DNA of 64,000 bases from an uncultured Candidatus Saccharibacteria bacterium (GCA_964507855.1 CAZDQS010000002.1:91284-155283), one strand, 5' to 3'. Positions 1,498 through 49,162 are shown, numbered from the stretch's first letter. Notes: generated by a model from the letters alone, not told the origin. Program-made: numbers and translations.

Positions 1498-4400
1498 TTA
1501 CTGTGGGTTCCAGTAGTTGAACTGGTAGGTCTGCTCGGCAGACGGCGCAGTGGTCAAGCCGAGCGTCATAGTCGTAGTATCAGCGGTAACGAACGGACCA
1601 ACCTCCGTCGACAGCTTGTCGATCGGACTGATGATTGGTCGCGGCGCAGTGTCGAACGGCTGGTTGAACGTGATGACACACGCGTCACCGTCAGACAGGG
1701 TGTCAGTACCGCTGATGAGGGTAATTGATCCGCTTGTGTCATTGCCCGTAACATCACACGATGCACTTGTCCCCGCCGCCGCCTGAACTTCGGCACTTGG
1801 CGCATCACCACCGGTCACAACGTGGCCGTTGACGATTATGTTGGCCAGGAAGGTGGCATCCTCAGAGACGGTCAGGCTAGCGAGCGTCGTCGCGCCCGTG
1901 ACCGTTAGGTCGTCATCAACCTGTAAAGCTCCCGTAGCAAGCAGGTGACCGTTAACCGTATCAATTGTGAAGATGGACGAGCCATCCGCCGCCTGTACCG
2001 AGAATGCGGCTTCAGAATCAGTCTTAACTGTGGTGTTGCCCTGCACCGTCAATGTCTGCCCTTGGGCAATAACAGTATTGTTGTTCAAGGTGACGTTCGG
2101 CTGCTCCGGAAGTACCGGGACGCTCGATACTTTGTATGCAATCATGTTCTGATTGGAGTTACTGACAACGTACATGTTATTGGCGTCCGTTGTAACCGCA
2201 GTGGGTGATGCCGAGGCAATAGCACCAACATAGGCAGGCTCTATGGTATTGGTCAGATCAATGATATGCACCGACCCGCCAGAGGCACTATCAACGATAG
2301 CTGCAAACTTGCCCTCTTCTGATATGACCATGGATTGCGCCGTGCCAATATCCGGGACACTGAGGCTGGATTCGCTCAGCTTGGCCGGGTTAGCCGGATC
2401 TGTCAGGTCGTAGACTTCGAGAACTTTGGTGGTGCCGTTATGGATGTAGAGATGGTGGTCATAGATCGCCATGGCCCGTACACCACTTGCCAGCGCCAAC
2501 TCGCCACTACTCGAAGGATTGTCTGGGTCAGCAAGGTCGAAGATAAACATTTTATGGAAGAGGAAGTTGTCAATTGCATAAGCATGCGTGCCGTAAACCC
2601 CTACTGTAAAGAGGTTCGTCCACATAGAGCTACCGGGTTGCAGGCTCTTGTAAGTTGGACTCTCTGGGTTCGTGATGTCAATGGTCGCAATCTTATACGT
2701 GTCTCCGTCATAGATGTAAACGTGAGTATCTGTTACCGTCAGGTCTTTGAGGTTTGCCAGGCTACCAGGACTGCTCAAGGTAGCGACAAGTGCCGGTTCG
2801 GCCGGATCAGCAAGACTCAAAACGTAGAGATTTGCTGGTGATATTGCGTAGAGATAATCACCACGAACTGCTAATTTAAGCGGATCGCTAAGGGCAACGC
2901 TGCCAGTTTCTTGCGGAGCCTCAGGATCGCTGATGTCATAGGTAAGGATTTTATTACCCTGCGAATTACGCATTGCTAGGTAGACATGGTTGCCTTTACG
3001 GGCGATAGCCGACGGGCGATCCGATCCAGTCGAAGTCGTGCTGAGCGCTGTCGCTTCGCTCAGTGTCTCAAATACCGGGTCTGTTGAGCCAGGTTCGACT
3101 TGCAGGCCAATACTTATGTCGCCGCTCAGCGTATCAACATTGAGAAGTGTTGCCTTTGCAGCGTTTTGGATTTGGAATGCGGCTGATGAATCAGTCCTGA
3201 CCGTCGTATCGCCGTGTATGTGCATAGCGTTGCCTTCTTCAACGACGACATTGCTATTGAGCTTAACGCCAAACTCTGGGTCCGGGGCCGGGCCGTCAGA
3301 TACAACCGGCTCGCCGACACGGAACACGTCGAGGTGCTGACCAGAGTCGCTGATGACATAGGCGTAATCACCACTGGCTGCAACTACTGTCGGTTCCGTA
3401 TCGAGTGGTAACGTGCCAAGCGAGATAGGATTCTCCGGGTCGGTTATATCAACCGCCTGGTAGGTGCTACTGTTGCTGTTTATGATAGCGGCAAATTTGC
3501 CATTGTCGGATATGATAACGCCAATTGGATGCGCATCGGTAGTAACTTCGCCGAGCTTCTCTGGAGTATTGGGGGTCGTAGCGATCTCGTAAATCTCCAT
3601 TTTGCCACTTGATGCTGTGCCGCTCGGGCTGCTGGTGACATAGAGATAGTCTCCATGCACAGTCACATCTGCTGGCGCCGTCAGGTTGAAGTATCCCACC
3701 TGGTTAACTTGGCCGTCAGCATTAAATATCCGGACTGCCTGAAAGCCTGCGCTATCGTCCACCGCGTAGACGCGGCTATTACCGGCACCTGCTAGTTGTC
3801 GAGAGGTGCCATTGACCTTATTGCCAGCACCACCACTTAGCGTGGGCGTAGAGGCAGGATTAGTTGCATTGTAGGCAACCATCCCACGGTTGCTGGTTAG
3901 AGAATAGACCCTGCCGTTACTGACAGTTATTGAGGCGTGTGTGCCGTATGCACTAAACGATCCCGTAGCCCATTTGTATACTGGGTCGCCTGGAGTGGTG
4001 ATATCAATTTCATATACTTTGTCATCGGTGGTCACAAACAAGCGAGTACCCTCTATGGCCATGTATTCTGGCTTCGTCAGCGAAAGTGTATCAACCAGAT
4101 TTGGGATGCCACTCTCTGATATCTGATATGTCTCAAGCTTGTCAGCAGCAGAGTATGTGACGTACACATAATTATCCTTAGCAATCATATCAGTAGCGGC
4201 TGCGTCCAAGTCCGCCTGTCCGGCCGCAACCTGGCCCATGATAAGATCGCTGCCCGGCACAGCGCCCTCCGGTGCTGCCGGAGGCTTCGGCGAGCCAATC
4301 GTTACAACGCCCTCTTCGGTATCAACAGTCAAGTACTGGGTTGCTTCAGCGTCAGCAACAGTGAGCGATGTCATACTTACGTCTGCCAGTGTTGTAGTCC

Positions 4401-7400
4401 CGGAGACTGTTAAGCTCTTGCCTGCACCAAGTTCTGTATCCTGATTCAGGCTGATAAGCGCTGCGTTATTCGGGCCAAGAACCAGTGTCTGCCCCTCTTC
4501 TTCGGTATCGATAGATGGAACTAATATGCCGCCGTCCGGCCCAGTCTCAAACTGCTCACCACCGCCCTCATCGCCGCCACCCTCGCCTGAACCACCGCCA
4601 CAAGTACCGGCAGTGACGATACCGCCGACAACCGTGACATTCTGCAGCACCTGGTCAGCACCACAATTAACATCGATCCCGAGCTCTTCGCCAACAGCAA
4701 AGGCAGTCCCGGCAATAACGACGCCGTTCTCTGTGTCGACCCTCAGGACATCATTGCCGGCAGCATCTTGGACTCGAAATGCGGTTTCTGAGTCAGTTTT
4801 AACAGTAGTTACGCCTTGTGACGTAAAGGTGCGGCCGGTGTACAGAACAGTATTCTGGTTGAGCGAGATGCGCGGAGCGCTTCCTGTTAGGTTGACTATC
4901 ATAAGGTTGCTTCTGCTGTTGTTGACCACCGCCACGATTCCGTCCTTTGTAGCTACAGAAACAGTCTTTGCACTTCCATTGCCATCCGAGACATCAACCG
5001 TTCCAACAGATTGAGGAACAGTATCATCAATATTAAGAACATGTAGTATGTTGGCTGATTCATCCGTCATGTAGAGATATTTGCCCGATTCGCTGACGAC
5101 AAGATCAGATGGGGCGCTGGTAATCGGCGTGGTTGCAACGGGCGACAAAGTACCCGAGCCCGCAATGGTCGAGACATCATACACGCGCAATGTGGAATCG
5201 TTGACAAACGGTATGTAAGCAAGCCCGTTGCTGACCGCAATACCAGCCGGCTTGGTGCTTGTCATGTTGTGGTTTGTAAATGGCAAGCTGTTCGCCAGCG
5301 GATTGGAGATGTTGTAGATACGGAGGCCTGAGTTCGTAGTAACACCCTGCATGACCGCATAGAGCCGGTCGCCGACAATATCCAGCCGGATCTTAGCCAC
5401 GCTAGAAAGGAGTGTCTGCGGATTCGTGCCGAGAGTAGCCGGGTTCTCTGGATCGGTTACATCGTACCGGTCGATATAGCTCCAGTTATCGGCGGCGATG
5501 TAGGCAACATAAAGATAGTTTCCCTTGACGGCAACAGCTTGGACAGAAGCACCGGCGTTTCTGGTTGTTATGGTTTTTATAAGTGAAGGTGAAGCGTCAG
5601 GGTCACTCACATCATAAATTTCAACCGAGGTAGTGCCGACGGCGACATAGGCTGTTGAGCCATCATCACTGACAGCAATGTCGTTAGCCGCACCGTTCAT
5701 TGTTGGTGCACTCCCGGCCAACTGCGGGCTTTCCGGATCGCTGATATCAACAATCTGTACGTTATTAATGATAGATGAGGCTACATACGCATAATCTCCG
5801 TTGATTGCGACGCTGTTCGGCAAGCTGCTGATGTTGACTTTGCCAGTCGTGCTATCGCTGATACTGCCGCCAACATTACTGTTTTCGGTCGGTGCATCAA
5901 CTGAGCCAAGATCGATATTCTTACCCTCTGTATCGACCACAAGATACGCATCATCGGTGCTATCGGATACCTTCAACGCTGTTGTTGAGCTGGTCTTAAC
6001 AGACGTACTGCCCTGGACGGACAACGTCTTACCCGACCCTATGGTCGTATTCTGGTTGAGGTTGATAGCATTGGCGTAGGTGCTGCCGATGTTAAGTGTG
6101 CTGCCAAGAATATTGGCATCAAAAGTCTGAGACTGAACAACGCCCAGAGAAAAGATATTACTGGCCGTGACAGAGCTGCTGAACGTACCCTTCACCGCTG
6201 TTATGTTGCCGCCAAGATCAAGACTGCCTGTCATATTACCGCTACCGTAAACTTGCAGTGTTGTATTGCCATTGCCGAGGTTCATGGTCTGGAGACTGTT
6301 ATTGTTCGGATATGTATTAGCGATGTAGGCGACACCGTCCTGCATAACCATGTCGGTACCGCGCCGCAAGAGCGCCTTGCTGCCCACTAGCTCAGGAGCA
6401 TCAGGGTCACGAGTGTTGTAGAGCTGGATATATCCGTGCGCATTGCTTGGCCCGCCGTAGTAGGTTATGACGATGACATAGCCAGCGTGCGCGTGAACAA
6501 CCGTTGGATTAGAGTAGATTTCACTGGCTTCCGTCGTATGCTTGAGCAACATTGCCGACGGATTACTGATATCAAATGTCTGCATCGTTGCGGCATTGGA
6601 GTTGATCACATATGCCCGATTGCCAAAAATACTGATGTCGGCAGGACCTGTGTTTGTTATTGCGGTGCTGATCGCAGCAATGTCGTTCGGGTCACTGGCA
6701 TCAAATGACATTATCCGGTTGCTGGCACGTTCTGTAACATACAGATTGGTGCCATAGATGGTAATTGCTGTTGGCCACGCATCTGGGCCAGCGCCAATGA
6801 CAAAGTCAGCAGACTGCACCGGATCGACCGGATCAGAAATATCAAAGGTATAGATGTGGTCATTGCCAAACGAGCCTGACTCGTTGCTGACGATGAAGAT
6901 ATAGTTGCCTTCCCGTACCATGTCTACCGGATAGTTGCCGGTCGCAACGGACTTTATGAGCTGCGGGTCGGTCGGACTGCTGACGTCATAGACGCGAAGA
7001 CTACCAGTTGAACTCGTCGGCTTATCAAGAATGTACAGATAGTCAGAGGCAGCAATCATCTTAATCGGGCTGGTTAGCCCGGTGCCTGTCGTCTTCGAAA
7101 GTACGAGGCTTGGGTTGGCTGTCGGATCGGATACATCAAAAACATAGAAGAATGACCCGTCAATCGTAACAAACGCATAATCACCGGAGACCGCCACCGC
7201 AGACAATGGAGTACTACCGCTCGGTACGCTTGCGGAGGTAGTCGAGCCAGATGGTAATTCACCGGTAAGCTCAGACGATGAAGGGGCAGCCAGCGAACCA
7301 ATAGTTACCTTCATATTCAGAGTATTGCCGCTGATGAGCGAGGCACCGGCCGCGTTCTGCAGATCAAAAGCCTCTACCGCGTCGGACAGACCTTTCATGA

Positions 7401-9291
7401 GGACTGGCCCATTTACCTCACTGCTACCACTTATTACTTTACCGGTGATGTTTATGTGGCCTTCCTGGGCTTCGCCCGGTGTTTCGGTCTGCAGCGCGAC
7501 ACACGTCGGACATTCGTCCGTCGGCTGAGTATCAAAGTCGTCGGCACACTCCCATTGGCTAGCGTCTGCATCATATTTCAGCGTCTGGCCGTCGGTACAA
7601 GTTGCCAAAAGGCCAAGTCCGTCTTCATCAGTTTCGAGGCCACCACCATCGCGGACATTGACAGCAATTTTCGGATTGGCCCCGTCGGTAATATCAACAT
7701 AGATTGAACTATCGCTTGCCGAAATTGACGCAACGCCGACACCATCACCGCCGGTATCTTCAGCACACAGCAGCACGCCATTTGCGTCCAGCGTCAGCTT
7801 GCCACCATTACCCGCAGCCGAACAGTCTATTGCCGGTATCACAATATTCCCGGTGCTGTTGCCGAGGACTAAGTTCGCAAAGTTGGCTTGCACAATATTC
7901 ATGCTGCCCTGCGATGACAGGTTTGCTGACAGACCCAGCTCAATGCCACCGGCAAATGTCTTGAGTCCTGCAAAGCGCTGGCTGGTTGTACTGACCAAGC
8001 CGGCACGTGTCTGGCTGGCGTCGTGCAGGGTGATGGTGTTACCGCTGGTGTCGGCATTTGCGATTATGACAGCGCCCGTAAGGCCGTTAATCGAGGAGAC
8101 GCTTCCAGCAAGACTGTCACACGTGACAAACTCCGGTCCGTCCGTGCCACTAACAAAACAAAGCCCTGGCTGGGTGGGCGGCGCCGTGGTAGCAAGCCGA
8201 TCGCCGTTGTAGTACATAACACCGCCGGCAAGCAGGTCATCCGCAGTTGCTCCGGTACCACCGCTGGCGATGCCAAGCGCCTGAGTAAGTGTTAACTCAT
8301 TAACGCTTGCCGCCCCAGAAACCACCAGGTCCACTGCCGCTGCCGTCCCGGACACATCCAAATCACCAAGTGTCATACCGGCGAATTCAGGAGTCGCGCC
8401 TTTGTGTATGTCCTGGGGCAGGCTGACGGTAATCTTGCCAGTCGCAGCAGAAACAACAACCTGGTTCGGCGTTCCCTGGAGCTCGATAACACCGGTGCTG
8501 GTAATTTTGTAGCCATCGTCATTTTCTTCAACGTTGATACCGTCACCAGCGGTGATTTCCAATTTCTGGGCGTCCTGGAGTTCCTGTACCACCTGCCCGA
8601 CAATCGTGCCCATCGTCTCGCCCAGTGCACCCTCTACCAGTTCACCAACCATGCCTTCCACCGCTTGGGTGTTTTGCAATAACTCGGCCTCGATAAGTGT
8701 CTGGTACTCCTCCAGGTCTTGCATAGTCGTTACCGTCTGGAACTGAGCACCGTCATGGAACATGAAATCATTTGTGCCGATATCGAAGTAAAACAGGCCG
8801 GCGCCTGCATTATCCGGTTGATCAGAGGGCGTGATGGTGAGCGCATTATTAAGCTCAAGTGGCCCATTGATGGTCACCTTGGTGTTGCTCTGCGCTGCCT
8901 GCGCCAGTACGTTTGGCAGCTGGGCCAGCACATCTTCGGGAATATCAGCCACCAGTGTGGCTTGCTCGCTATTATTGCCGCTGGTCAGCTGATCATTGGC
9001 TGCAAGAATCGTATAGATAGTTCCGATGCCTACGAGAAACACTGCGACGATAGCAACAGGTAGGACTCGCTTTCGTGACAATGCCGACAGAAAGCGGTTG
9101 CGCTTCGTGAATATAGTCTTGGTATTTGGCGGCGGCGAAGAGGGCGTACCAGGCGTGGTTGCGGCACCCTGCCCTACGCTTGTGCCACCCGAAGGTGGTG
9201 CACTTTGCCCATACAAATCCATGCGTTCCGCGCCATTGCCGGAGGATGTGCTTGCATTTTGGCTATTTTTTGTGTCAGCCTCTCCCGCCAC
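1498..9291 (-). CDS. giant (2597 aa) membrane-anchored surface protein with repeated LVIVD-type beta-propeller blocks
   Basis: Uninterrupted ORF with one N-terminal TM helix. At least four blocks of the repeat G(D/N)Y(A/L)YV...L.(V/I)(Y/F)D(V/I)SDP..P, separated by LNQNT..TVQG.TTVKTDS..AF.VQ.A.G modules. Confidence 0.85.
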   Translation of the reverse strand: MAGEADTKNSQNASTSSGNGAERMDLYGQSAPPSGGTSVGQGAATTPGTPSSPPPNTKTIFTKRNRFLSALSRKRVLPVAIVAVFLVGIGTIYTILAANDQLTSGNNSEQATLVADIPEDVLAQLPNVLAQAAQSNTKVTINGPLELNNALTITPSDQPDNAGAGLFYFDIGTNDFMFHDGAQFQTVTTMQDLEEYQTLIEAELLQNTQAVEGMVGELVEGALGETMGTIVGQVVQELQDAQKLEITAGDGINVEENDDGYKITSTGVIELQGTPNQVVVSAATGKITVSLPQDIHKGATPEFAGMTLGDLDVSGTAAAVDLVVSGAASVNELTLTQALGIASGGTGATADDLLAGGVMYYNGDRLATTAPPTQPGLCFVSGTDGPEFVTCDSLAGSVSSINGLTGAVIIANADTSGNTITLHDASQTRAGLVSTTSQRFAGLKTFAGGIELGLSANLSSQGSMNIVQANFANLVLGNSTGNIVIPAIDCSAAGNGGKLTLDANGVLLCAEDTGGDGVGVASISASDSSIYVDITDGANPKIAVNVRDGGGLETDEDGLGLLATCTDGQTLKYDADASQWECADDFDTQPTDECPTCVALQTETPGEAQEGHINITGKVISGSSEVNGPVLMKGLSDAVEAFDLQNAAGASLISGNTLNMKVTIGSLAAPSSSELTGELPSGSTTSASVPSGSTPLSAVAVSGDYAFVTIDGSFFYVFDVSDPTANPSLVLSKTTGTGLTSPIKMIAASDYLYILDKPTSSTGSLRVYDVSSPTDPQLIKSVATGNYPVDMVREGNYIFIVSNESGSFGNDHIYTFDISDPVDPVQSADFVIGAGPDAWPTAITIYGTNLYVTERASNRIMSFDASDPNDIAAISTAITNTGPADISIFGNRAYVINSNAATMQTFDISNPSAMLLKHTTEASEIYSNPTVVHAHAGYVIVITYYGGPSNAHGYIQLYNTRDPDAPELVGSKALLRRGTDMVMQDGVAYIANTYPNNNSLQTMNLGNGNTTLQVYGSGNMTGSLDLGGNITAVKGTFSSSVTASNIFSLGVVQSQTFDANILGSTLNIGSTYANAINLNQNTTIGSGKTLSVQGSTSVKTSSTTALKVSDSTDDAYLVVDTEGKNIDLGSVDAPTENSNVGGSISDSTTGKVNISSLPNSVAINGDYAYVASSIINNVQIVDISDPESPQLAGSAPTMNGAANDIAVSDDGSTAYVAVGTTSVEIYDVSDPDASPSLIKTITTRNAGASVQAVAVKGNYLYVAYIAADNWSYIDRYDVTDPENPATLGTNPQTLLSSVAKIRLDIVGDRLYAVMQGVTTNSGLRIYNISNPLANSLPFTNHNMTSTKPAGIAVSNGLAYIPFVNDSTLRVYDVSTIAGSGTLSPVATTPITSAPSDLVVSESGKYLYMTDESANILHVLNIDDTVPQSVGTVDVSDGNGSAKTVSVATKDGIVAVVNNSRSNLMIVNLTGSAPRISLNQNTVLYTGRTFTSQGVTTVKTDSETAFRVQDAAGNDVLRVDTENGVVIAGTAFAVGEELGIDVNCGADQVLQNVTVVGGIVTAGTCGGGSGEGGGDEGGGEQFETGPDGGILVPSIDTEEEGQTLVLGPNNAALISLNQDTELGAGKSLTVSGTTTLADVSMTSLTVADAEATQYLTVDTEEGVVTIGSPKPPAAPEGAVPGSDLIMGQVAAGQADLDAAATDMIAKDNYVYVTYSAADKLETYQISESGIPNLVDTLSLTKPEYMAIEGTRLFVTTDDKVYEIDITTPGDPVYKWATGSFSAYGTHASITVSNGRVYSLTSNRGMVAYNATNPASTPTLSGGAGNKVNGTSRQLAGAGNSRVYAVDDSAGFQAVRIFNADGQVNQVGYFNLTAPADVTVHGDYLYVTSSPSGTASSGKMEIYEIATTPNTPEKLGEVTTDAHPIGVIISDNGKFAAIINSNSSTYQAVDITDPENPISLGTLPLDTEPTVVAASGDYAYVISDSGQHLDVFRVGEPVVSDGPAPDPEFGVKLNSNVVVEEGNAMHIHGDTTVRTDSSAAFQIQNAAKATLLNVDTLSGDISIGLQVEPGSTDPVFETLSEATALSTTSTGSDRPSAIARKGNHVYLAMRNSQGNKILTYDISDPEAPQETGSVALSDPLKLAVRGDYLYAISPANLYVLSLADPAEPALVATLSSPGSLANLKDLTVTDTHVYIYDGDTYKIATIDITNPESPTYKSLQPGSSMWTNLFTVGVYGTHAYAIDNFLFHKMFIFDLADPDNPSSSGELALASGVRAMAIYDHHLYIHNGTTKVLEVYDLTDPANPAKLSESSLSVPDIGTAQSMVISEEGKFAAIVDSASGGSVHIIDLTNTIEPAYVGAIASASPTAVTTDANNMYVVSNSNQNMIAYKVSSVPVLPEQPNVTLNNNTVIAQGQTLTVQGNTTVKTDSEAAFSVQAADGSSIFTIDTVNGHLLATGALQVDDDLTVTGATTLASLTVSEDATFLANIIVNGHVVTGGDAPSAEVQAAAGTSASCDVTGNDTSGSITLISGTDTLSDGDACVITFNQPFDTAPRPIISPIDKLSTEVGPFVTADTTTMTLGLTTAPSAEQTYQFNYWNPQ

Positions 9292-12360: not shown

Positions 12361-12436
12361 AGTCTAAGTTTAACACCTTAAGTATGGTTCTAGACCCACG
12401 TTTGAACAGATAAGAATAGGTTTCGGGATTCGAATC

Positions 12437-12465
12437 AAAAAACCGACCTTTCGGTCGGCTTTTGG
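12437..12465. terminator. bidirectional hairpin terminator
   Basis: AAAAAA-CCGACC-TTTC-GGTCGG-CTTTT. Confidence 0.5.
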
Positions 12466-12533
12466 ACTAACAATTCGAGTTTAGCTCTCTTGGCTGGTAT
12501 TTACACCCATGTGGGTCACGTTTGGTGTAAATC

Positions 12534-12653
12534 TTGGCTGGGGATGAGGGATTCGACTCACCTTCGGCGAGCCCGGAACTTCACGGTGGCAAGCACAGCT
12601 TGCCCCGGAAGATTCCCTTGCGAATTGCCACCGGCAATTCTCACCCCGATCAC
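12534..12653 (-). repeat. tRNA-Gln 3' segment (att-core homologue) interrupted by an 86-nt hairpin element (copy A)
   Basis: 12534-12556 equals the first 23 nt of the 36-nt att repeat and 12643-12653 matches its remainder (one C fewer). The intervening 12557-12642 folds into two long hairpins. Confidence 0.7.
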
Positions 12654-12684
12654 TTTTGGTCGGAGATTCGAATCACACAGAGCC

Positions 12685-12712
12685 AAAGAAAAAGCCCACA
12701 TAAAGTGGGCCC
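12685..12712 (-). terminator. intrinsic terminator downstream of the displaced tRNA-Gln 3' end
   Basis: Minus strand reads GCCCAC-TTTAT-GTGGGC-TTTTTCTTT, immediately after the 12718-12753 tRNA fragment. Confidence 0.65.
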
Positions 12713-12717
12713 TTTCT

Positions 12718-12753
12718 TTGGCTGGGGATGAGGGATTCGAACCCCCGATCACG
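12718..12753. repeat. prophage att repeat, tRNA-distal copy (36 bp)
   Basis: ttggctggggatgagggattcgaacccccgatcacg is identical to 48565-48600. Confidence 0.9.
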
Positions 12754-12931: not shown

Positions 12932-13783
12932 TCAGTAATTACTCGTATGGAATTGGCGGGCTACTTGAGCAACCTCCGGATTCTGCAAGTGTGAGTATAT
13001 ATCTATCGTTGTAGTGATACGGGAATGTCCGGCGATTTTCTGTACCATAGCCATTGGCGCGTGATTCTTAATGTAGTCCGTAATGGTTGAGTGCCGGAAT
13101 ACATGAGCTGATACGTTCTTATCTATGCCCGCCTCTAGGGCGCATTTACGGAGCATCTTATCTACTGTCGTGTAGTGTATTCTGCCGTACTGCCCGGACA
13201 TAAACAGTGGCTTGAATCTATCGTTTCGCTCAGCTAAATAAGCATCAAGATATTTTCGGGCTGTGCTGTCAATATAGACTTCTCGGTACTTGTCTCCCTT
13301 ACCGCAAACCATAGGTTCGTTATTGTTCACAACATCCTCTACGTTCAATGAAAGCAGCTCAGAAATTCTGCACCCTGTTGAGAACAGCATGGCGATAATT
13401 GCCTTATCACGGGTGTTTTTCGCAGCTTCAATCATGGCCTTTACTTCTTCGACCTCAAGCCAATTAGGATCTGGTTTCTCTACACTAGGAAGGCTGATAT
13501 CACGCGTATCAATAACCTTTAACCCTCGTGTTTCCATATAGCGCAAAACACTACGTAAACAGACGATATTCTTATAAATTGTTGAGGATTTATTAGGCTT
13601 CTGCCGCATGTACTCTTTCCACACCACGATACTGTCCATAGTAACCAGCTCTATAGGGGTATCGCCACACGCGTCTAAATACGACTGAATGGCACAATGA
13701 TAATTATGAATTGTCTTTGGTTTGCGGCCTTCGTAGCGTAGTACGTTAATTTCGTAAATATTAAAAGCTTCACTGAGCAACAT
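12932..13783 (-). CDS. int: tyrosine recombinase / phage integrase (XerC/D-like, 283 aa)
   Basis: Motifs STGCRISELLSL (Arg), HVFRHS (H-x-x-R) and TTTIDIYSH (Tyr). GAGGAG RBS. Adjacent to the att repeat. Confidence 0.9.
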   Translation of the reverse strand: MLLSEAFNIYEINVLRYEGRKPKTIHNYHCAIQSYLDACGDTPIELVTMDSIVVWKEYMRQKPNKSSTIYKNIVCLRSVLRYMETRGLKVIDTRDISLPSVEKPDPNWLEVEEVKAMIEAAKNTRDKAIIAMLFSTGCRISELLSLNVEDVVNNNEPMVCGKGDKYREVYIDSTARKYLDAYLAERNDRFKPLFMSGQYGRIHYTTVDKMLRKCALEAGIDKNVSAHVFRHSTITDYIKNHAPMAMVQKIAGHSRITTTIDIYSHLQNPEVAQVARQFHTSNY

Positions 13784-13992: not shown

Positions 13993-14407
13993 AGTTAAGT
14001 TAGTGTTTTAATCTGTTTTGGATAATACCAACCCTGCCTGTTTGTTGAACATAGATTGAGGTAGGTTGGTGGTTAGTAAATAGGAGTCGAATTTGCATTG
14101 TTAAAGTTCAGGCAATAGCAAACAAGACCCTTTGGTTTTTGTACCCTCCAAAAAGTTTTAGCAATTATGCCCGGCCTTCTGCAGAAAAGCCGTACTTGTT
14201 TACCTGCCCTGCCCGTCCGTCGCTACATGAGTCTCGGTTTCGGCGGCCACTTCTTTTAACCCGGAGTGACGCTTTAAGGTGGTCGGGTATAGATGGGAGT
14301 AAAAAAACTCCCTTACCCAGTAACGTTGGGTTAAGAGAGTGTCAAGTGTGATTTTATGACATCCCTTACGGGAGGCCATAGATCGGTTCTGCATTCATAA
14401 AATACCA

Positions 14408-17310: not shown

Positions 17311-17934
17311 TTAGGCTGCTTCAGTTTCCGCTACTAGATACCCGTGGAAGAAATTTGTTTCTGCACTAGTGCCGAGTCCCATAGAGTAGGATTGAGTATG
17401 GCCGATGAGGACGGTGACGTAGTCGCCCGCTTCCAGCTCTAGCAGCGCCGATACTCCGACAAACATGGGTTGTGTGTTGCCATCGCTGTTGCGATTGCGG
17501 TCTCCGTACTTCACCCGCGAGCCGTTTTTATACAGATGCATATACACGATGTCGCCCGTCACCGCCGAGGCGTAGCTGCCAGCCTCAAAGTAGTACGTCC
17601 CAGCAATCGGCGCGGTATACCGTCCGGTAGAGGTGTCGAAGTCGCTGTTTGGGTCAAATTCCACGGCATTATAGACCACCGGCTCAAGAGTACTGGAATT
17701 TGGAACGCTGGAAGAGCTGGCACGATAGGCGCTGAACCTGTAGGGATTTGTCCATTTTTTTGGAGTTACTGAGCCGTCAGCTAGTTTTGAGCCGTCTATC
17801 GCAGCATTGGCAGCGATATTTGAATTATCAAGACTACCATTGATTTCATTAACAATGGTGTTTATAGGCGTGTTGTATTGTGAGACGGTTGCAGCCGACC
17901 CGTCAGAAGGAAGCGATACACTAATGTTACCCAA
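17311..17934 (-). CDS. tail fibre / receptor-binding protein with a C1q-like C-terminal head
   Basis: TTG start at 17934, 8 nt after GGAGAC in the conserved late leader. C-terminal RFSAY...VVYNAVEFDPNSDFDTSTGRYTAPIAGTYYFEAG matches the C1q/TNF-like signature. Confidence 0.6.
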   Translation of the reverse strand: MGNISVSLPSDGSAATVSQYNTPINTIVNEINGSLDNSNIAANAAIDGSKLADGSVTPKKWTNPYRFSAYRASSSSVPNSSTLEPVVYNAVEFDPNSDFDTSTGRYTAPIAGTYYFEAGSYASAVTGDIVYMHLYKNGSRVKYGDRNRNSDGNTQPMFVGVSALLELEAGDYVTVLIGHTQSYSMGLGTSAETNFFHGYLVAETEAA

Positions 17935-24949: not shown

Positions 24950-25595
24950 AGCGGTTTATCCTCATGGTTGTTGGACGGCCTACTTGCGACTGGCTGTATT
25001 TGACCACTAATTTCTGAAGCAACTCGTCATAGCGGTTGAGATGTATTCCGGCTTGGTCGTAGTTGTCTTTGACTTGCAGGACTCTCGCAGCCGCTCCCGA
25101 CACCAAGAGTTCTTCAAACTCACTTGGCAATTCCGGCACGTCATTTCCACCGCTTAACATGGTTGGTTTTTTGTAGTATCTAAGCGTCAGGGTATAAGCG
25201 TTGTCCGGCTCAGGGAAAACCCGTATTGTTTCAGCATAGGTGTACCATTCCGAAGGAACGCCCCTTGGATTCACCGTCTCATTATCGGCATCTGGATGTA
25301 GCCGGTCTATCGAACGGACGTTGTTGTATGGAAGGACTTTCTGGTGCCCGTCAGAAGTAAGAATCAGATCGACCGCTTGCACGAAGTTGGCCGGAAGTCC
25401 GGAACCGTTGGTAATGTCAGACACACCTGCCGTTAAAGTGTAGTCCTGCTCCGTCTGCATAAACGGAAGGCGGTATTCGTTGTAGACATCGTTCAGCGTG
25501 TCATTGAGGTAGTTGGTTATCTCAGAGGTGGAATAACCCGTGTCACGGACTCGCTGCTGGACTTTCGTGATAATGTCCGAAAGTTGATAAGACAA
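24924..25595 (-). CDS. tail adaptor / tubular-A-like protein (by position)
   Basis: TTG start at 25595, 8 nt after GGAGACC in the conserved late leader; 223 aa. Confidence 0.5.
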   Translation of the reverse strand: MSYQLSDIITKVQQRVRDTGYSTSEITNYLNDTLNDVYNEYRLPFMQTEQDYTLTAGVSDITNGSGLPANFVQAVDLILTSDGHQKVLPYNNVRSIDRLHPDADNETVNPRGVPSEWYTYAETIRVFPEPDNAYTLTLRYYKKPTMLSGGNDVPELPSEFEELLVSGAAARVLQVKDNYDQAGIHLNRYDELLQKLVVKYSQSQVGRPTTMRINRYAVGKTHF

Positions 25596-25609
25596 GGCAA
25601 GGTCTCCGA

Positions 25610-25636
25610 CCTGCCCGTGTTGGGTATATTATACCA
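25610..25636 (-). promoter_or_regulatory. phage late promoter and leader, copy 3
   Basis: Minus strand reads TGGTATAAT-ATACCCAACA-CGGGCAGGTCGGAGACC. Confidence 0.6.
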
Positions 25637-33271: not shown

Positions 33272-33625
33272 CTATTCTCCAGGTTGGAGTTCTGGATATT
33301 CAGTGCGAAGCTGCTCAATGAGCTTCTTGACCATAATGATGCCGTCCGTAAATTGTGCGACAGTGTTTTTATGCTCGGAGAGGTTGTTATTACCCTTTAG
33401 TCTCAAAGCTTCTTTGTCGCTTTGCTGCAATCGGCGGGCATGAATGACGTTGACCCGCTCCCGCCACGCCTGTGATTCAAGTTCTTCGAGTTGCGCCTGT
33501 AAAAAAGCCAGCTTGCGGAATGGAGTTGGCTCCGCTTCTGCTGGTATGTTGAATTCTTTTACGGTCTCTTTATCGACAGCCAGAGGGTTGTCTATCACTT
33601 TGTATTCTTGGGAGGCATCAGCCAT
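33272..33625 (-). CDS. hypothetical coiled-coil protein, first gene behind late promoter copy 5
   Basis: 117-aa ORF; ATG preceded by GGAG in the conserved leader. Confidence 0.5.
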   Translation of the reverse strand: MADASQEYKVIDNPLAVDKETVKEFNIPAEAEPTPFRKLAFLQAQLEELESQAWRERVNVIHARRLQQSDKEALRLKGNNNLSEHKNTVAQFTDGIIMVKKLIEQLRTEYPELQPGE

Positions 33626-33639
33626 GAGTAATACTCCGA

Positions 33640-33667
33640 CCTGCCCGTGTCAGCCAGTAGTATAGCA
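33640..33667 (-). promoter_or_regulatory. phage late promoter and leader, copy 5
   Basis: Minus strand reads TGCTATACT-ACTGGCTGACA-CGGGCAGGTCGGAG. Confidence 0.55.
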
Positions 33668-48320: not shown

Positions 48321-48474
48321 AATCCCCCTTACACCTCTGGGAACTCCATCCCAGCTTTGTTTAGTCGAAGCTAGTAGTGTCGTATCCCTCTACTTGAGGC
48401 CGATAACGTCACGTTCGCTTCACAGAGTTATTCACCCTGGGAAGTCACAGAACCGATCTATGGCCTCCATAAAG

Positions 48475-48564: not shown

Positions 48565-48600
48565 TTGGCTGGGGATGAGGGATTCGAACCCCCGATCACG
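48565..48600. repeat. prophage att repeat, tRNA-proximal copy (36 bp)
   Basis: Identical to 12718-12753; covers the 3' 35 nt of tRNA-Gln plus 1 nt. Confidence 0.9.
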
Positions 48601-48639
48601 GGACCAGAACCCGTTGCCTTACCGCTTGGCCAATCCCCA
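48566..48639 (-). tRNA. tRNA-Gln (anticodon CUG), CCA encoded
   Basis: Minus strand TGGGGAT-TG-GCCAAGCGGTAAGGC-A-ACGGG-TTCTGGT-CCCGT-GATC-GGGGG-TTCGAAT-CCCTC-ATCCCCA-GCCA. U1-A72 and a clean cloverleaf. Confidence 0.9.
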
Positions 48640-48706
48640 ATAAACTCTACTCATTCTACTATACTGATTATTAAGGTTGAGGATGCTTCTGCTCGAGCGG
48701 TAAGGT

Positions 48707-48818
48707 GTTGCCTTGCCACCTCTGATGGCCCCGAAACTTCACGACTGGCAACCAGTTGCCATCGGAAGGTTTCCTTGCAAACTGTCACCGACAGTTTTCA
48801 CGCTTGGCCAATCCCCAA
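48707..48818 (-). repeat. tRNA-Gln 5' fragment interrupted by an 83-nt hairpin element (copy B)
   Basis: 48801-48818 equals tRNA positions 48623-48640. 48707-48717 matches 48613-48623 with 1 mismatch. The intervening 48718-48800 is homologous to the copy A insert. Confidence 0.7.
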
Positions 48819-48874
48819 CGGCTCCCCGCTACTGCGGGATAAAATTTCTGGTTACAGGGGTGAATTATACCCTT

Positions 48875-49162
48875 TTACCTGCTGTTTGGCAATCGCGGCC
48901 ATATGACTTTTGCTTTTATAGCATGAGGCGGCACATGGCCGAACTGCCTGCTATCGACGCTACCGTCGGGATTATCGCCAACCACGAACACGCCCTCGCG
49001 CTCAATCGCCTGAATGCGTTTTATCTTTTCTCTGCCGTCATGCCATATGATAACAACACTCCCTACCTGGGGTCGGCTCGGCCACTTGAGTGCAACAACA
49101 ATCTGGCCGGGCTTAAGCGTTGGTGCCATACTCATGCCGACAACGCGCCGCAGCAGTATCAT
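48875..49162 (-). CDS. sodX: S26-family peptidase, Ni-SOD maturation protease-like
   Basis: GMSMAPTL (catalytic Ser) and IKRI (Lys) in a 95-aa minimal signal-peptidase fold, in an operon with sodN. Confidence 0.7.
   Translation of the reverse strand: MILLRRVVGMSMAPTLKPGQIVVALKWPSRPQVGSVVIIWHDGREKIKRIQAIEREGVFVVGDNPDGSVDSRQFGHVPPHAIKAKVIWPRLPNSR

Follow-up and report, generated by a model that had tools for sequence, protein, structure and literature searches.

Copy A, a structured element of approximately 88 nt that splits a partial copy of tRNA-Gln in the 64-kb window (the whole stretch of DNA that was analysed), probably belongs to a large family of non-autonomous mobile elements of ~86-90 nt, as an old copy passed on by vertical inheritance. 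The element encodes no protein. It consists of three hairpins, P1, a variable P2, and P3, and probably starts with GUGAG; since it sits in tRNA loops, a host stem would close a four-way junction around it. Members of the family would have moved repeatedly between tRNA loci, always in the sense orientation and with a few nucleotides of donor flank carried along. Because tRNA genes are essential, the surviving products would be partial tandem duplications made up of an untouched tRNA with its own terminator or promoter, a short inverted tRNA copy, and a truncated tRNA copy with the element; a target that was already a pseudo-copy would simply receive an insertion. For tRNA-Gln(CUG), copy A would then be the downstream module, in the T-loop, and a second copy in the window, copy B, the upstream module, in the D-loop. 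A literature search returned no published description of the three-hairpin element, and the family is apparently undescribed.

Coordinates are given on the + strand; the three-hairpin element and tRNA-Gln both lie on the minus strand. An initial annotation of this DNA described copy A as a 36-nt prophage attachment (att) core split by a double-hairpin insert, and much of that description holds. Positions 12534-12556 are, as claimed, an exact copy of the first 23 nt of the 36-nt repeat at 12718-12753 and 48565-48600, and 12643-12653 (accccgatcac) does supply the rest of the core, with one C fewer. Between these two core matches lie 86 nt. Viewed as tRNA, the split core consists of a tRNA-Gln 3' piece (12535-12556) and 10 nt of upstream tRNA (12644-12653) with a structured insert between them, and the insert does sit in the T-loop in tRNA sense. 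When the 120-nt stretch that holds copy A is folded in minus sense, the predicted energy is -58.4 kcal/mol (z = -4.6 versus shuffles). The annotation was right that the insert is structured and wrong about the number of hairpins, which is three rather than two; the CTCGCC-GAA-GGTGAG stem that it pointed out is P3. If the start is GUGAG, the sequence makes it most likely that the element spans 12557-12644, or ~88 nt. It reads GUGAG...GGUGAG, and base 12556 is both a tRNA base and the last base of P3. The features of copy A and its surroundings are as follows.

12535..12556, minus strand: tRNA-Gln 3' fragment, the long flank of copy A (D-type), recognised by its identity with the 3' end of the intact tRNA-Gln
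12556-12572, minus strand: P3, 7 bp with a GAA loop and two G.U pairs
12557..12644, minus strand: three-hairpin element (3HP), copy A, supported by sequence, fold, covariance model (117 bits, E = 2.4e-25), and covariation
12575-12616, minus strand: P2, a rod with single-base bulges
12619-12643, minus strand: P1, an 8-bp core (12622-12640) with a U-A and G-C extension around an A.G mismatch
12644..12653, minus strand: short flank X, GUGAUCGGGG, 10 nt of tRNA-Gln directly 5' of the element, in a layout common to 60 D-type loci
12658..12686, minus strand: X', UUGGCUCUGUGUGAUUCGAAUCUCCGACC, a degenerate inverted copy of the tRNA-Gln 3' third, from sequence comparison
12687..12717, minus strand: terminator hairpin of the pre-integration tRNA-Gln gene, with a terminator-like site at 12694-12710, conserved in the orthologous locus L110
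12718..12753, minus strand: displaced native tRNA-Gln 3' end, one copy of the prophage att repeat (direct repeat D1), which is context outside the element

The 3' fragment comprises the 3' half of the T-loop, the 3' strands of the T-stem and acceptor stem, and CCA, and X comprises the variable region and the 5' strand of the T-stem. Together, X', the terminator, and the intact tRNA's end make up a long palindrome, and X' is predicted to pair with the flanks. The terminator hairpin separates the displaced tRNA 3' end from X', in agreement with the annotation's placement of copy A 65 nt past that end, beyond the terminator.

Copy B, which the annotation had also recorded, exists at ~48701-48810. 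It lies on the other side of tRNA-Gln(CUG), which is the sole intact tRNA in the 64-kb window according to ARAGORN and Rfam.

48566..48639, minus strand: intact tRNA-Gln(CUG), flanked by both modules (ARAGORN; Rfam tRNA model, 60.1 bits)
48696-48706, minus strand: X' of copy B, ACCUUACCGCU, an antisense copy of the uninterrupted D-loop region that joins x without a loop
48707-48714, minus strand: short flank x of copy B, AAGGCAAC, from sequence, in a layout common to 27 U-type loci
48715..48801, minus strand: three-hairpin element, copy B, in the D-loop of a 5' tRNA-Gln fragment (covariance model 96.5 bits, E = 1.2e-20)
48801..48817, minus strand: tRNA-Gln 5' fragment (nt 1-17), the long flank of copy B (U-type), from an 18-nt direct repeat with 0 mismatches
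48864..48892, minus strand: sigma-70-type promoter upstream of copy B (TTGCCA, 17-nt spacer, TATAAT), 11/12 matches, with the -10 conserved in L110

The 18-nt repeat stops 1 nt before tRNA position 1, and copy B separates a copy of tRNA-Gln nt 1-17 from a copy of nt 20-27. Placed as it is between a promoter and the intact tRNA, copy B would be expected to be co-transcribed with the tRNA as a leader. Predicted transcription-related signals at the two copies are limited to the promoter-like site upstream of copy B and terminators around copy A.

Further copies, on which the initial annotation had made its reading depend, are plentiful. We collected them with the pattern GCAAGGNNNNCTTCCG-N14-36-CGTGAAGTT, run across one genome per species. 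This yielded at least 116 matches, of which 11 among those listed are chance matches in coding DNA of unrelated bacteria, and the true copies number at least ~105 in at least ~88 species-level assemblies. The titles of the listed assemblies name mostly Candidatus Saccharibacteria, Saccharimonas, or Saccharimonadales; the others are labelled simply "bacterium" or "uncultured bacterium", apart from one (L005) that is labelled Candidatus Parcubacteria. As sampled, the family is restricted to Candidatus Saccharibacteria among the matches listed. A collection of viral contigs contained no match to the element pattern. A covariance model built from 99 copies finds 117 copies across 100 loci, among them members of diverged subfamilies in which P1 and P3 are retained and P2 is different. 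Within the 64-kb window, the collecting pattern matches twice against 0 expected in shuffles, and the model finds copies A and B (E = 2e-25 and 1e-20) and nothing else, which excludes chance. Rfam searches matched only the tRNA model across the whole window at gathering threshold, and only tRNA and chance matches up to E = 10 around copies A and B, with no family for the element.

The fold is strongly supported by covariation. When 34 proposed pairs are scored across 99 copies, 98.4% of the cells hold a standard pair, compared with 26-44% in slid controls, and 21 of the 34 pairs show compensatory changes on both sides. None of 500 shuffles reaches the observed pairing and covariation values. 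The annotation had noticed a G-U pair that forms only in the minus-sense RNA, and P3 indeed needs G.U: its pair 92:101 is G.U in 86 of the 99 copies. Pair 45:81 of P2 alternates between C-G and U.G. Both would be mismatched on the opposite strand, which assigns the fold to the tRNA-sense strand, either as RNA or as sense-strand ssDNA. Strand-specific structure supported by covariation, the hallmark of a structured ncRNA, is therefore present. The invariant residues at the base of P2 and in the P1/P2 junction of these copies are partly forced by the collecting pattern; both do vary in the subfamilies found with the model, where the junction residues GCAAGG become GGAAAC, GAGGGC, or GCAGAG.

All of the tRNA-linked copies listed are in tRNA sense and sit in a loop within a truncated tRNA copy. 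The insertion points lie mostly in the T-loop and also in the D-loop, the anticodon loop or stem, and the variable region. The element occurs at 25 or more tRNA species and inside other copies of itself, so the annotation's suggestion of a mobile insert in tRNA-Gln loops stands as to the mobile insert and falls as to the restriction to tRNA-Gln. An intact cognate tRNA lies 40-110 nt from each interrupted copy and on the same strand in 60 downstream and 27 upstream modules. Rfam searches of eight loci without an adjacent ARAGORN tRNA found no other host RNA. At L025 and L101, the context of the element is GGGUGACGUNCGGNGGG.

The modules are of two types. Copy A belongs to the downstream (D) type (n = 60), in which the order in tRNA sense is intact tRNA, terminator, X', X, element, 3' fragment, and second terminator. 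Here X' is an inverted, partly degenerate copy of approximately nt 44-77 of the tRNA, X is nt 44-53, and the 3' fragment is nt 56-77 including CCA; antisense flank matches (X') are found in most D-type loci. Copy B belongs to the upstream (U) type (n = 27), in which a promoter is followed by tRNA nt 1-N, the element, 7-12 further tRNA nt, an inverted copy of the insertion-point region, a second -10-like box, and the intact tRNA. In every module, X' copies an uninterrupted loop, and the palindrome centres have loops of 0-3 nt. Given that X' loses pairing between the orthologous window and L110 loci without compensation, we read it as a relic of DNA fold-back rather than as a functional RNA helix. 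A functional RNA splint was rejected on two grounds, the uncompensated decay and the 0-3-nt centre loops. At L005, the fragment differs from the adjacent intact tRNA-Pro. At L022, a downstream tRNA-Lys pseudo-copy has X' and an uninterrupted T-arm, indicating that duplication may sometimes precede insertion. The third hairpin, the inverted tRNA copy, and the constant presence of an intact tRNA beside the interrupted piece had all gone unseen in the initial annotation.

The tRNA-Gln locus of the window also carries a prophage. The last 36 nt of tRNA-Gln(CUG) are repeated at 12718-12753, and a tyrosine integrase gene lies at 12932-13783; it is the only integrase gene in the window and belongs to the 36-kb prophage. 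Together, the 36-nt repeats and the integrase indicate that ~12754-48564 is a prophage integrated in tRNA-Gln. Its 36-nt core is uninterrupted. We rebuilt the pre-integration locus by joining the window across the att repeat, and the rebuilt locus aligns with L110, which comes from a Saccharibacteria metagenome-assembled genome that has no prophage. In L110 the aligned parts are contiguous, in the order promoter, upstream D-loop module, tRNA-Gln(CUG), terminator, X' and X, element, and 3' fragment. The split fragment thus pre-exists in a prophage-free genome, a comparison that the annotation had pointed toward, and the presence of both modules there indicates that they predate the integration and are not att sites or decoys. 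Judged from the sequences, the prophage integrated later into the intact gene between the modules and is unrelated to the element. Between the window and L110, identity is ~88-96% in the tRNA and spacers and ~73% in the downstream element, where all stem changes are compensated; in the upstream element, P2 is a different one. A core less alike than its flanks at a fixed site suggests that the element has been turned over or converted there, or that it has evolved fast with compensation, and is a point against our main reading.

We compared the junctions across 99 copies. GAG is preceded by U in 98% and, before that, by G in 100% of copies, and the bases further upstream vary. The element start is therefore probably GUGAG, and the G and U may belong to the element. 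Many copies end in AC. There is no target-site duplication in 70 of the 99 copies, a duplication of 1 nt in 27, and one of 2-3 nt in 2. When the first 12 nt are compared with the last 12, complementarity averages 3.9 of 12 positions, and a MITE dependent on a DDE transposase was rejected for want of both terminal inverted repeats and a target-site duplication of fixed length. Relative to the neighbouring intact tRNA, 1 (T) or 2 (GT) native nucleotides are missing at the junction. The last base of P3 occupies the position of T-loop U55 and is either kept as part of a G.U pair or changed to C. No conserved target tetranucleotide was found at the insertion points.

No candidate mobilising enzyme emerged near the copies. 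We clustered 770 ORFs from the loci and compared the ten most recurrent clusters to Pfam, which returned only housekeeping families; no recurrent transposase, integrase, or reverse transcriptase lies near the copies in ~100 loci. A tblastn search of the window and loci (~0.9 Mb) with an IS200 TnpA sequence gave no match.

Several lines of sequence evidence indicate mobility. The nearest relatives of a copy are usually found at another tRNA. In genome CAZNIK01, a copy downstream of tRNA-Met (L077) and a copy upstream of tRNA-Pro (L103) differ by 1 mismatch over 103 aligned columns. The block that they have in common includes a 9-nt left flank, GGTCGGAGG, that is native to tRNA-Pro, whereas the native tRNA-Met sequence at that position, GGTCGCAGG, is unlike that of L077. 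A flank native to tRNA-Pro within a tRNA-Met module suggests that the element takes a few nucleotides of its flank along when it moves. Members of a second subfamily lie nested within other copies, at the P2/P3 junction (L011, L022, L074, L084, and L091), and modules have accreted serially or in tandem at one tRNA (L011 and L017). These near-identical copies at different tRNAs, the nesting, and the accretion are what indicate mobility. At L069, a pseudo-tRNA-Gln that already held a T-loop copy has a second copy in its D-loop, with native flanks and no fold-back, indicating that the elementary event is a simple insertion. By contrast with L069, the duplicated architecture would appear to arise where the target is an essential intact gene.

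The modules also differ in age. The orthologous tRNA-Lys modules L002 and L007 contain a 63-64-nt direct repeat that runs through the terminator; because the repeat is identical within each genome and different between the two, it has undergone concerted evolution. Elsewhere, the tRNA fragment is worn to 8-15 nt, and such varying degrees of erosion indicate modules of many ages. Even in eroded modules, the three-hairpin core still scores 105-120 bits. This intact core is the main argument for either a host-level function or continual re-invasion, and the retention of the core in streamlined genomes while the flanks and X' decay fits host selection at least as well as it fits a selfish element.

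As to how the element might move, we favor only tentatively, and at somewhat less than even odds, a mechanism in which a folded single strand is copied into the target and the survivors are those that duplicate the tRNA end with a fold-back. The element would act as a folded single strand, either RNA or the sense DNA strand exposed at replication; for genes co-oriented with replication, the sense strand is the lagging-strand template. Copying would fall to a trans-acting enzyme, or else to template switching or gap repair, guided by short homology in conserved tRNA blocks plus GU/GT microhomology. The fold-back junction would then come from a further break or strand switch, at a distance of 7-12 nt from the point of insertion. 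Four other models that we worked through by hand each fit part of the anatomy only: synthesis primed at the target, with the second strand nicked at +/-10; priming by fold-back at the terminator palindrome and a later switch back; Campbell-type integration of a ~220-nt palindromic circle; and repair of a double-strand break from an ectopic module in which the flanks are co-converted. None of the four accounts for both the uninterrupted inverted segment and its fixed nearness to the insert, and no model considered, the favored one included, accounts for the constant position of the element in the hairpin beside the breakpoint or for the way in which the inverted segment became joined to it.

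A bolder form of the mobile-element reading, in which the element is a new class of mobile nucleic acid whose folded single strand recognises tRNA-shaped loops, seems to us rather unlikely. It could take the form of a minimal RNA that inserts itself within tRNA transcripts and then returns to DNA by copying, or of a scaffold for a structure- or RNA-guided recombinase, with the adjacent sense and antisense tRNA segments choosing the target. If true, it would be to bacteria what intron transposition and the fragmentation of tRNA genes are to archaea, and it would add a new way for tRNA genes to become duplicated and broken. There is a real chance that the element, placed among the small structured non-autonomous repeats, is categorically new.

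The principal non-mobile explanation is a host-functional structured RNA module, transcribed with or beside tRNA genes and serving in protein binding, processing, stabilisation, or regulation; the tRNA pieces would be leftovers, mobility would be ancient, and selection would now maintain the copies. We regard it as unlikely, though far from negligible. The structure is preserved in old modules with decayed flanks, the changes between the orthologs L002 and L007 and between the window and L110 are compensatory, and the family persists in streamlined genomes of ~1 Mb from at least 88 species. Copy B lies behind an 11/12 sigma-70 promoter and ahead of an intact tRNA, and the window, L021, L069, L074, L091, and L110 all have the upstream D-loop module of tRNA-Gln at one and the same site. 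On the other hand, the downstream modules lie behind a strong terminator and have no detected promoter, P2 and the junction residues vary across subfamilies to an extent unusual for one RNA function, presence and position differ between tRNAs and genomes, and the nested, tandem, and near-identical copies at different tRNAs look like those of a spreading repeat. The related suggestion of an ncRNA built on tRNA pieces, made in the initial annotation, is possible given the strong promoter ahead of copy B; the tRNA parts and the inverted segment, however, decay like relics, and only the three-hairpin core is kept. An RNA-level, intron-like invader, which would enter the loops of tRNA transcripts by reverse splicing or ligation, be reverse transcribed, and recombine as cDNA beside the gene, would explain why the targets are cloverleaf loops with a host stem closing a four-way junction, why sense orientation is 100%, why the fold is strand-specific with G.U pairs, why many repeats end exactly at tRNA position 1 or CCA, and why GUGAG starts after an invariant context and AC is a frequent end. 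We nevertheless judge it improbable. No complete tRNA gene carries the element, the 1-2 nt lost at the junction would not be lost by transesterification, and some repeats reach into untranscribed promoter sequence (L088) or through terminators (L002, L007, and L024). Moreover, the junction residues vary between subfamilies, which argues against a fixed catalytic core, and there is neither a reverse transcriptase near the loci nor an Rfam ribozyme or intron match.

A miniature integrative element or att scar, with the three-hairpin part as a recombinase recognition structure at the crossover, would account for the island-like layout of intact tRNA, element DNA, and displaced end, with newer modules beside the gene, and for a fragment at L005 that is unlike the adjacent tRNA-Pro, as an element-borne copy would be. 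The T-loop, too, is reportedly a classic integrase crossover site. However, only one of the two junctions is interrupted, near-identical cores occur at many tRNAs on both the 5' and 3' sides, none of ~100 loci has a linked integrase, the window's only integrase belongs to a prophage whose own core is intact, and simple insertions occur without any repeat; this explanation is highly improbable. A structure-specific recombination site resembling attC or IS200/IS605 ends, another of the annotation's options, is a possibility: the strand-specific fold and the absence of target-site duplications and terminal inverted repeats agree with it, and the absence of a conserved target tetranucleotide and of a nearby Y1 transposase or IntI does not. 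Integron attC itself was rejected. An attC site is a single imperfect palindrome (R''-L''...L'-R') with a GTTRRRY box, at a cassette boundary next to intI, whereas at the loci examined the hairpins are three and separate, cassette ORFs are absent, and the neighbours are housekeeping genes. Finally, copy A adjoins the prophage and has 23 + 11 nt in common with its att core, which speaks for chance similarity or for the secondary or decoy att site that the annotation had listed. Given the 86-nt split of the core, the modules of prophage-free L110, at least ~105 further copies with ~100 modules at other, prophage-free tRNAs, and E values of 1e-20 to 1e-25, that explanation was rejected and has almost no chance of being correct.

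Saccharibacteria and other Candidate Phyla Radiation (CPR) bacteria have tiny genomes that are expected not to tolerate junk, yet in the sampled loci many tRNA genes have beside them truncated tRNA copies with a tightly conserved three-hairpin structure. If selfish, the element would represent a new way to colonise essential genes without killing the host and a source of tRNA-gene rearrangement, and it would explain tRNA-like debris that confuses the annotation of tRNAs and att sites. If functional, it would be an abundant class of RNA that Rfam lacks, in a lineage of which some members can be cultivated. Either way, annotation of the element and the search for the enzyme that moves or binds it can start from the alignment and covariance model.

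By analogy, the three-hairpin element appears to work most like REP/BIME repeats and the IS200/IS605 PATEs of Y1 HUH enzymes (RAYT and TnpA), which does not imply membership. Like them, it is short, non-coding, and multi-copy, forms imperfect hairpins with covarying stems on one strand only, has a GT-purine-G-like motif 5' of a hairpin (here GUGAG before P1), and lacks target-site duplications and terminal inverted repeats; the combination of strand-specific subterminal hairpins and no target-site duplication that marks PATE/REP sequences was found here. They are mobilised in trans, as we propose for the three-hairpin element. It differs from them in having three different hairpins in a fixed junction rather than one repeated palindrome, in inserting into tRNA loops rather than after a fixed tetranucleotide, in the partial target duplication with fold-back, and in that no Y1 transposase was found within the ~0.9 Mb sampled. 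MITEs (Correia, RUP, Nezha, and similar elements) are likewise small, non-autonomous, and multi-copy, and form hairpins when transcribed; unlike them, the element has no terminal inverted repeats or target-site duplication, a single orientation, and strand-specific covariation. Small self-cleaving ribozymes (hammerhead, twister, twister-sister, pistol, hatchet, HDV-like, and hairpin) were rejected, as no Rfam match was found up to E = 10 around copies A and B and the junction residues vary between subfamilies.

The archaeal mobile tRNA introns and split tRNAs of Thermoproteales and Nanoarchaeum similarly involve short, related inserts, the mobile introns being at non-canonical positions, in the D-, anticodon-, and T-loops of many tRNAs, and tRNA genes in pieces with tRNA-complementary sequence adjoining. 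There, functional tRNAs arise via a bulge-helix-bulge and splicing endonuclease, whereas here truncated copies lie beside an intact gene, in bacterial rather than archaeal genomes. We tested 308 combinations of boundary and filler per copy for in-silico excision and obtained a junction-spanning tRNA for 1 of ~100 copies, an 87-nt artefact. A tRNA intron, whether group I or bulge-helix-bulge, was thus rejected because the exons are incomplete and a whole tRNA is never regained by excision. Patescibacteria, the same broad host group, have group I introns in their tRNA genes that are also structured inserts missed by annotation tools; these introns exceed 200 nt, have a P1-P9 core, interrupt the anticodon loop of complete genes, and are spliced (PMC13011429). 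The three-hairpin element, in contrast, measures ~86 nt, matches no Rfam intron model, is found mostly in T-loops, and never interrupts a complete gene. Group I and group II introns were rejected because Rfam models detect no catalytic core (P3-P9, or domain V/VI) up to E = 10 around both copies and because the element is so short.

tRNA-targeting prophages and islands likewise leave a displaced tRNA end beside a restored gene and accrete at the same tRNA. The three-hairpin module differs from them in its size of ~200 nt, in having no integrase, in the duplication of both 5' and 3' tRNA ends, in its inverted tRNA segment, and in that the element interrupts the repeat rather than lying between repeats. 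The window's own prophage displays the tRNA-integration pattern at the 36-kb scale.

Among the other loci recovered in the search for the three-hairpin element family, we observed truncated tRNA copies that carry different small hairpin inserts at the same kind of site as the three-hairpin element. These other inserts were found at the following positions:

L022 3380-3440, minus strand
L078 and L006, anticodon loop of a pseudo-tRNA-Gln
L011 ~1790-1900
L098, downstream of tRNA-Arg

Two short hairpins are among these inserts, as are a hairpin with the sequence CCCCAnnAAAnnGGGG and an element that reads GTGAGGCGGG...TGACTTGTG. Given the presence of other small hairpin inserts at such sites, the phenomenon therefore extends beyond the three-hairpin subfamily.

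A departure from the usual module layout (truncated tRNA copy, element, and inverted tRNA segment beside an intact tRNA gene) is seen downstream of tRNA-Lys(CUU) in L022 (3170-3250, minus strand), where a degenerate inverted tRNA copy precedes a T-arm-like sequence, GGGGTTCGAAGAC, that is uninterrupted and lacks the element. This arrangement may represent a module either before insertion of the element or after its loss. Two copies of the three-hairpin element lie in a non-tRNA context (L025 2401-2511 and L101 1607-1716) that in both loci begins GGGUGACGU(U/G)CGG(C/U)GGG. This context could be another structured RNA, for example a fragment resembling signal recognition particle (SRP) RNA or tmRNA; a comparison with Rfam at the gathering threshold returned no identity for it.

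Beside the tRNA-Gln fragment in the window, we observed a 35-bp segment (12498-12532) that ends in 9-nt terminal inverted repeats, ATTTACACC...GGTGTAAAT, and is bracketed by a 9-bp direct repeat, CTTGGCTGG, at 12489-12497 and 12533-12541, which extends into the tRNA fragment's end. The segment resembles a very small MITE whose target-site duplication would be 9 bp long. When the window is compared with L110, the orthologous Saccharibacteria locus without the prophage, the segment is missing from the latter. Nearby, within 12420-12456, a T-arm-like piece, GATTCGAATCCCGAAAC, comes after a minus-strand terminator hairpin (12441-12456) and may be left over from an older module or from the original trailer of tRNA-Gln. 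Two genes also lie on this side of the locus:

1498-9291, minus strand, single ORF of 2597 aa
10761-11723, Mrr-like restriction endonuclease gene adjoining the 2597-aa ORF

The window's tRNA-Gln(CUG) holds an integrated prophage of ~36 kb (12718-48600); prophages have seldom been reported in Saccharibacteria. Its principal features are as follows:

12718-12753 and 48565-48600, flanking 36-nt direct repeat
12932-13783, minus strand, tyrosine integrase

Near both prophage ends lies a perfect 21-nt inverted repeat (14371-14391 and 48448-48468), which could provide integrase or excisionase arm sites or else constitute phage terminal repeats. Within the prophage, the motif ...CCGACCTGCCCGTGTT-N7-ATTATAnCA (repeat families D3, D4, and D14 of the window) recurs at 17932, 21565, 25593-25636, 28916, 33623-33667, and 37451; these occurrences probably serve as promoters or regulatory sites of the phage.
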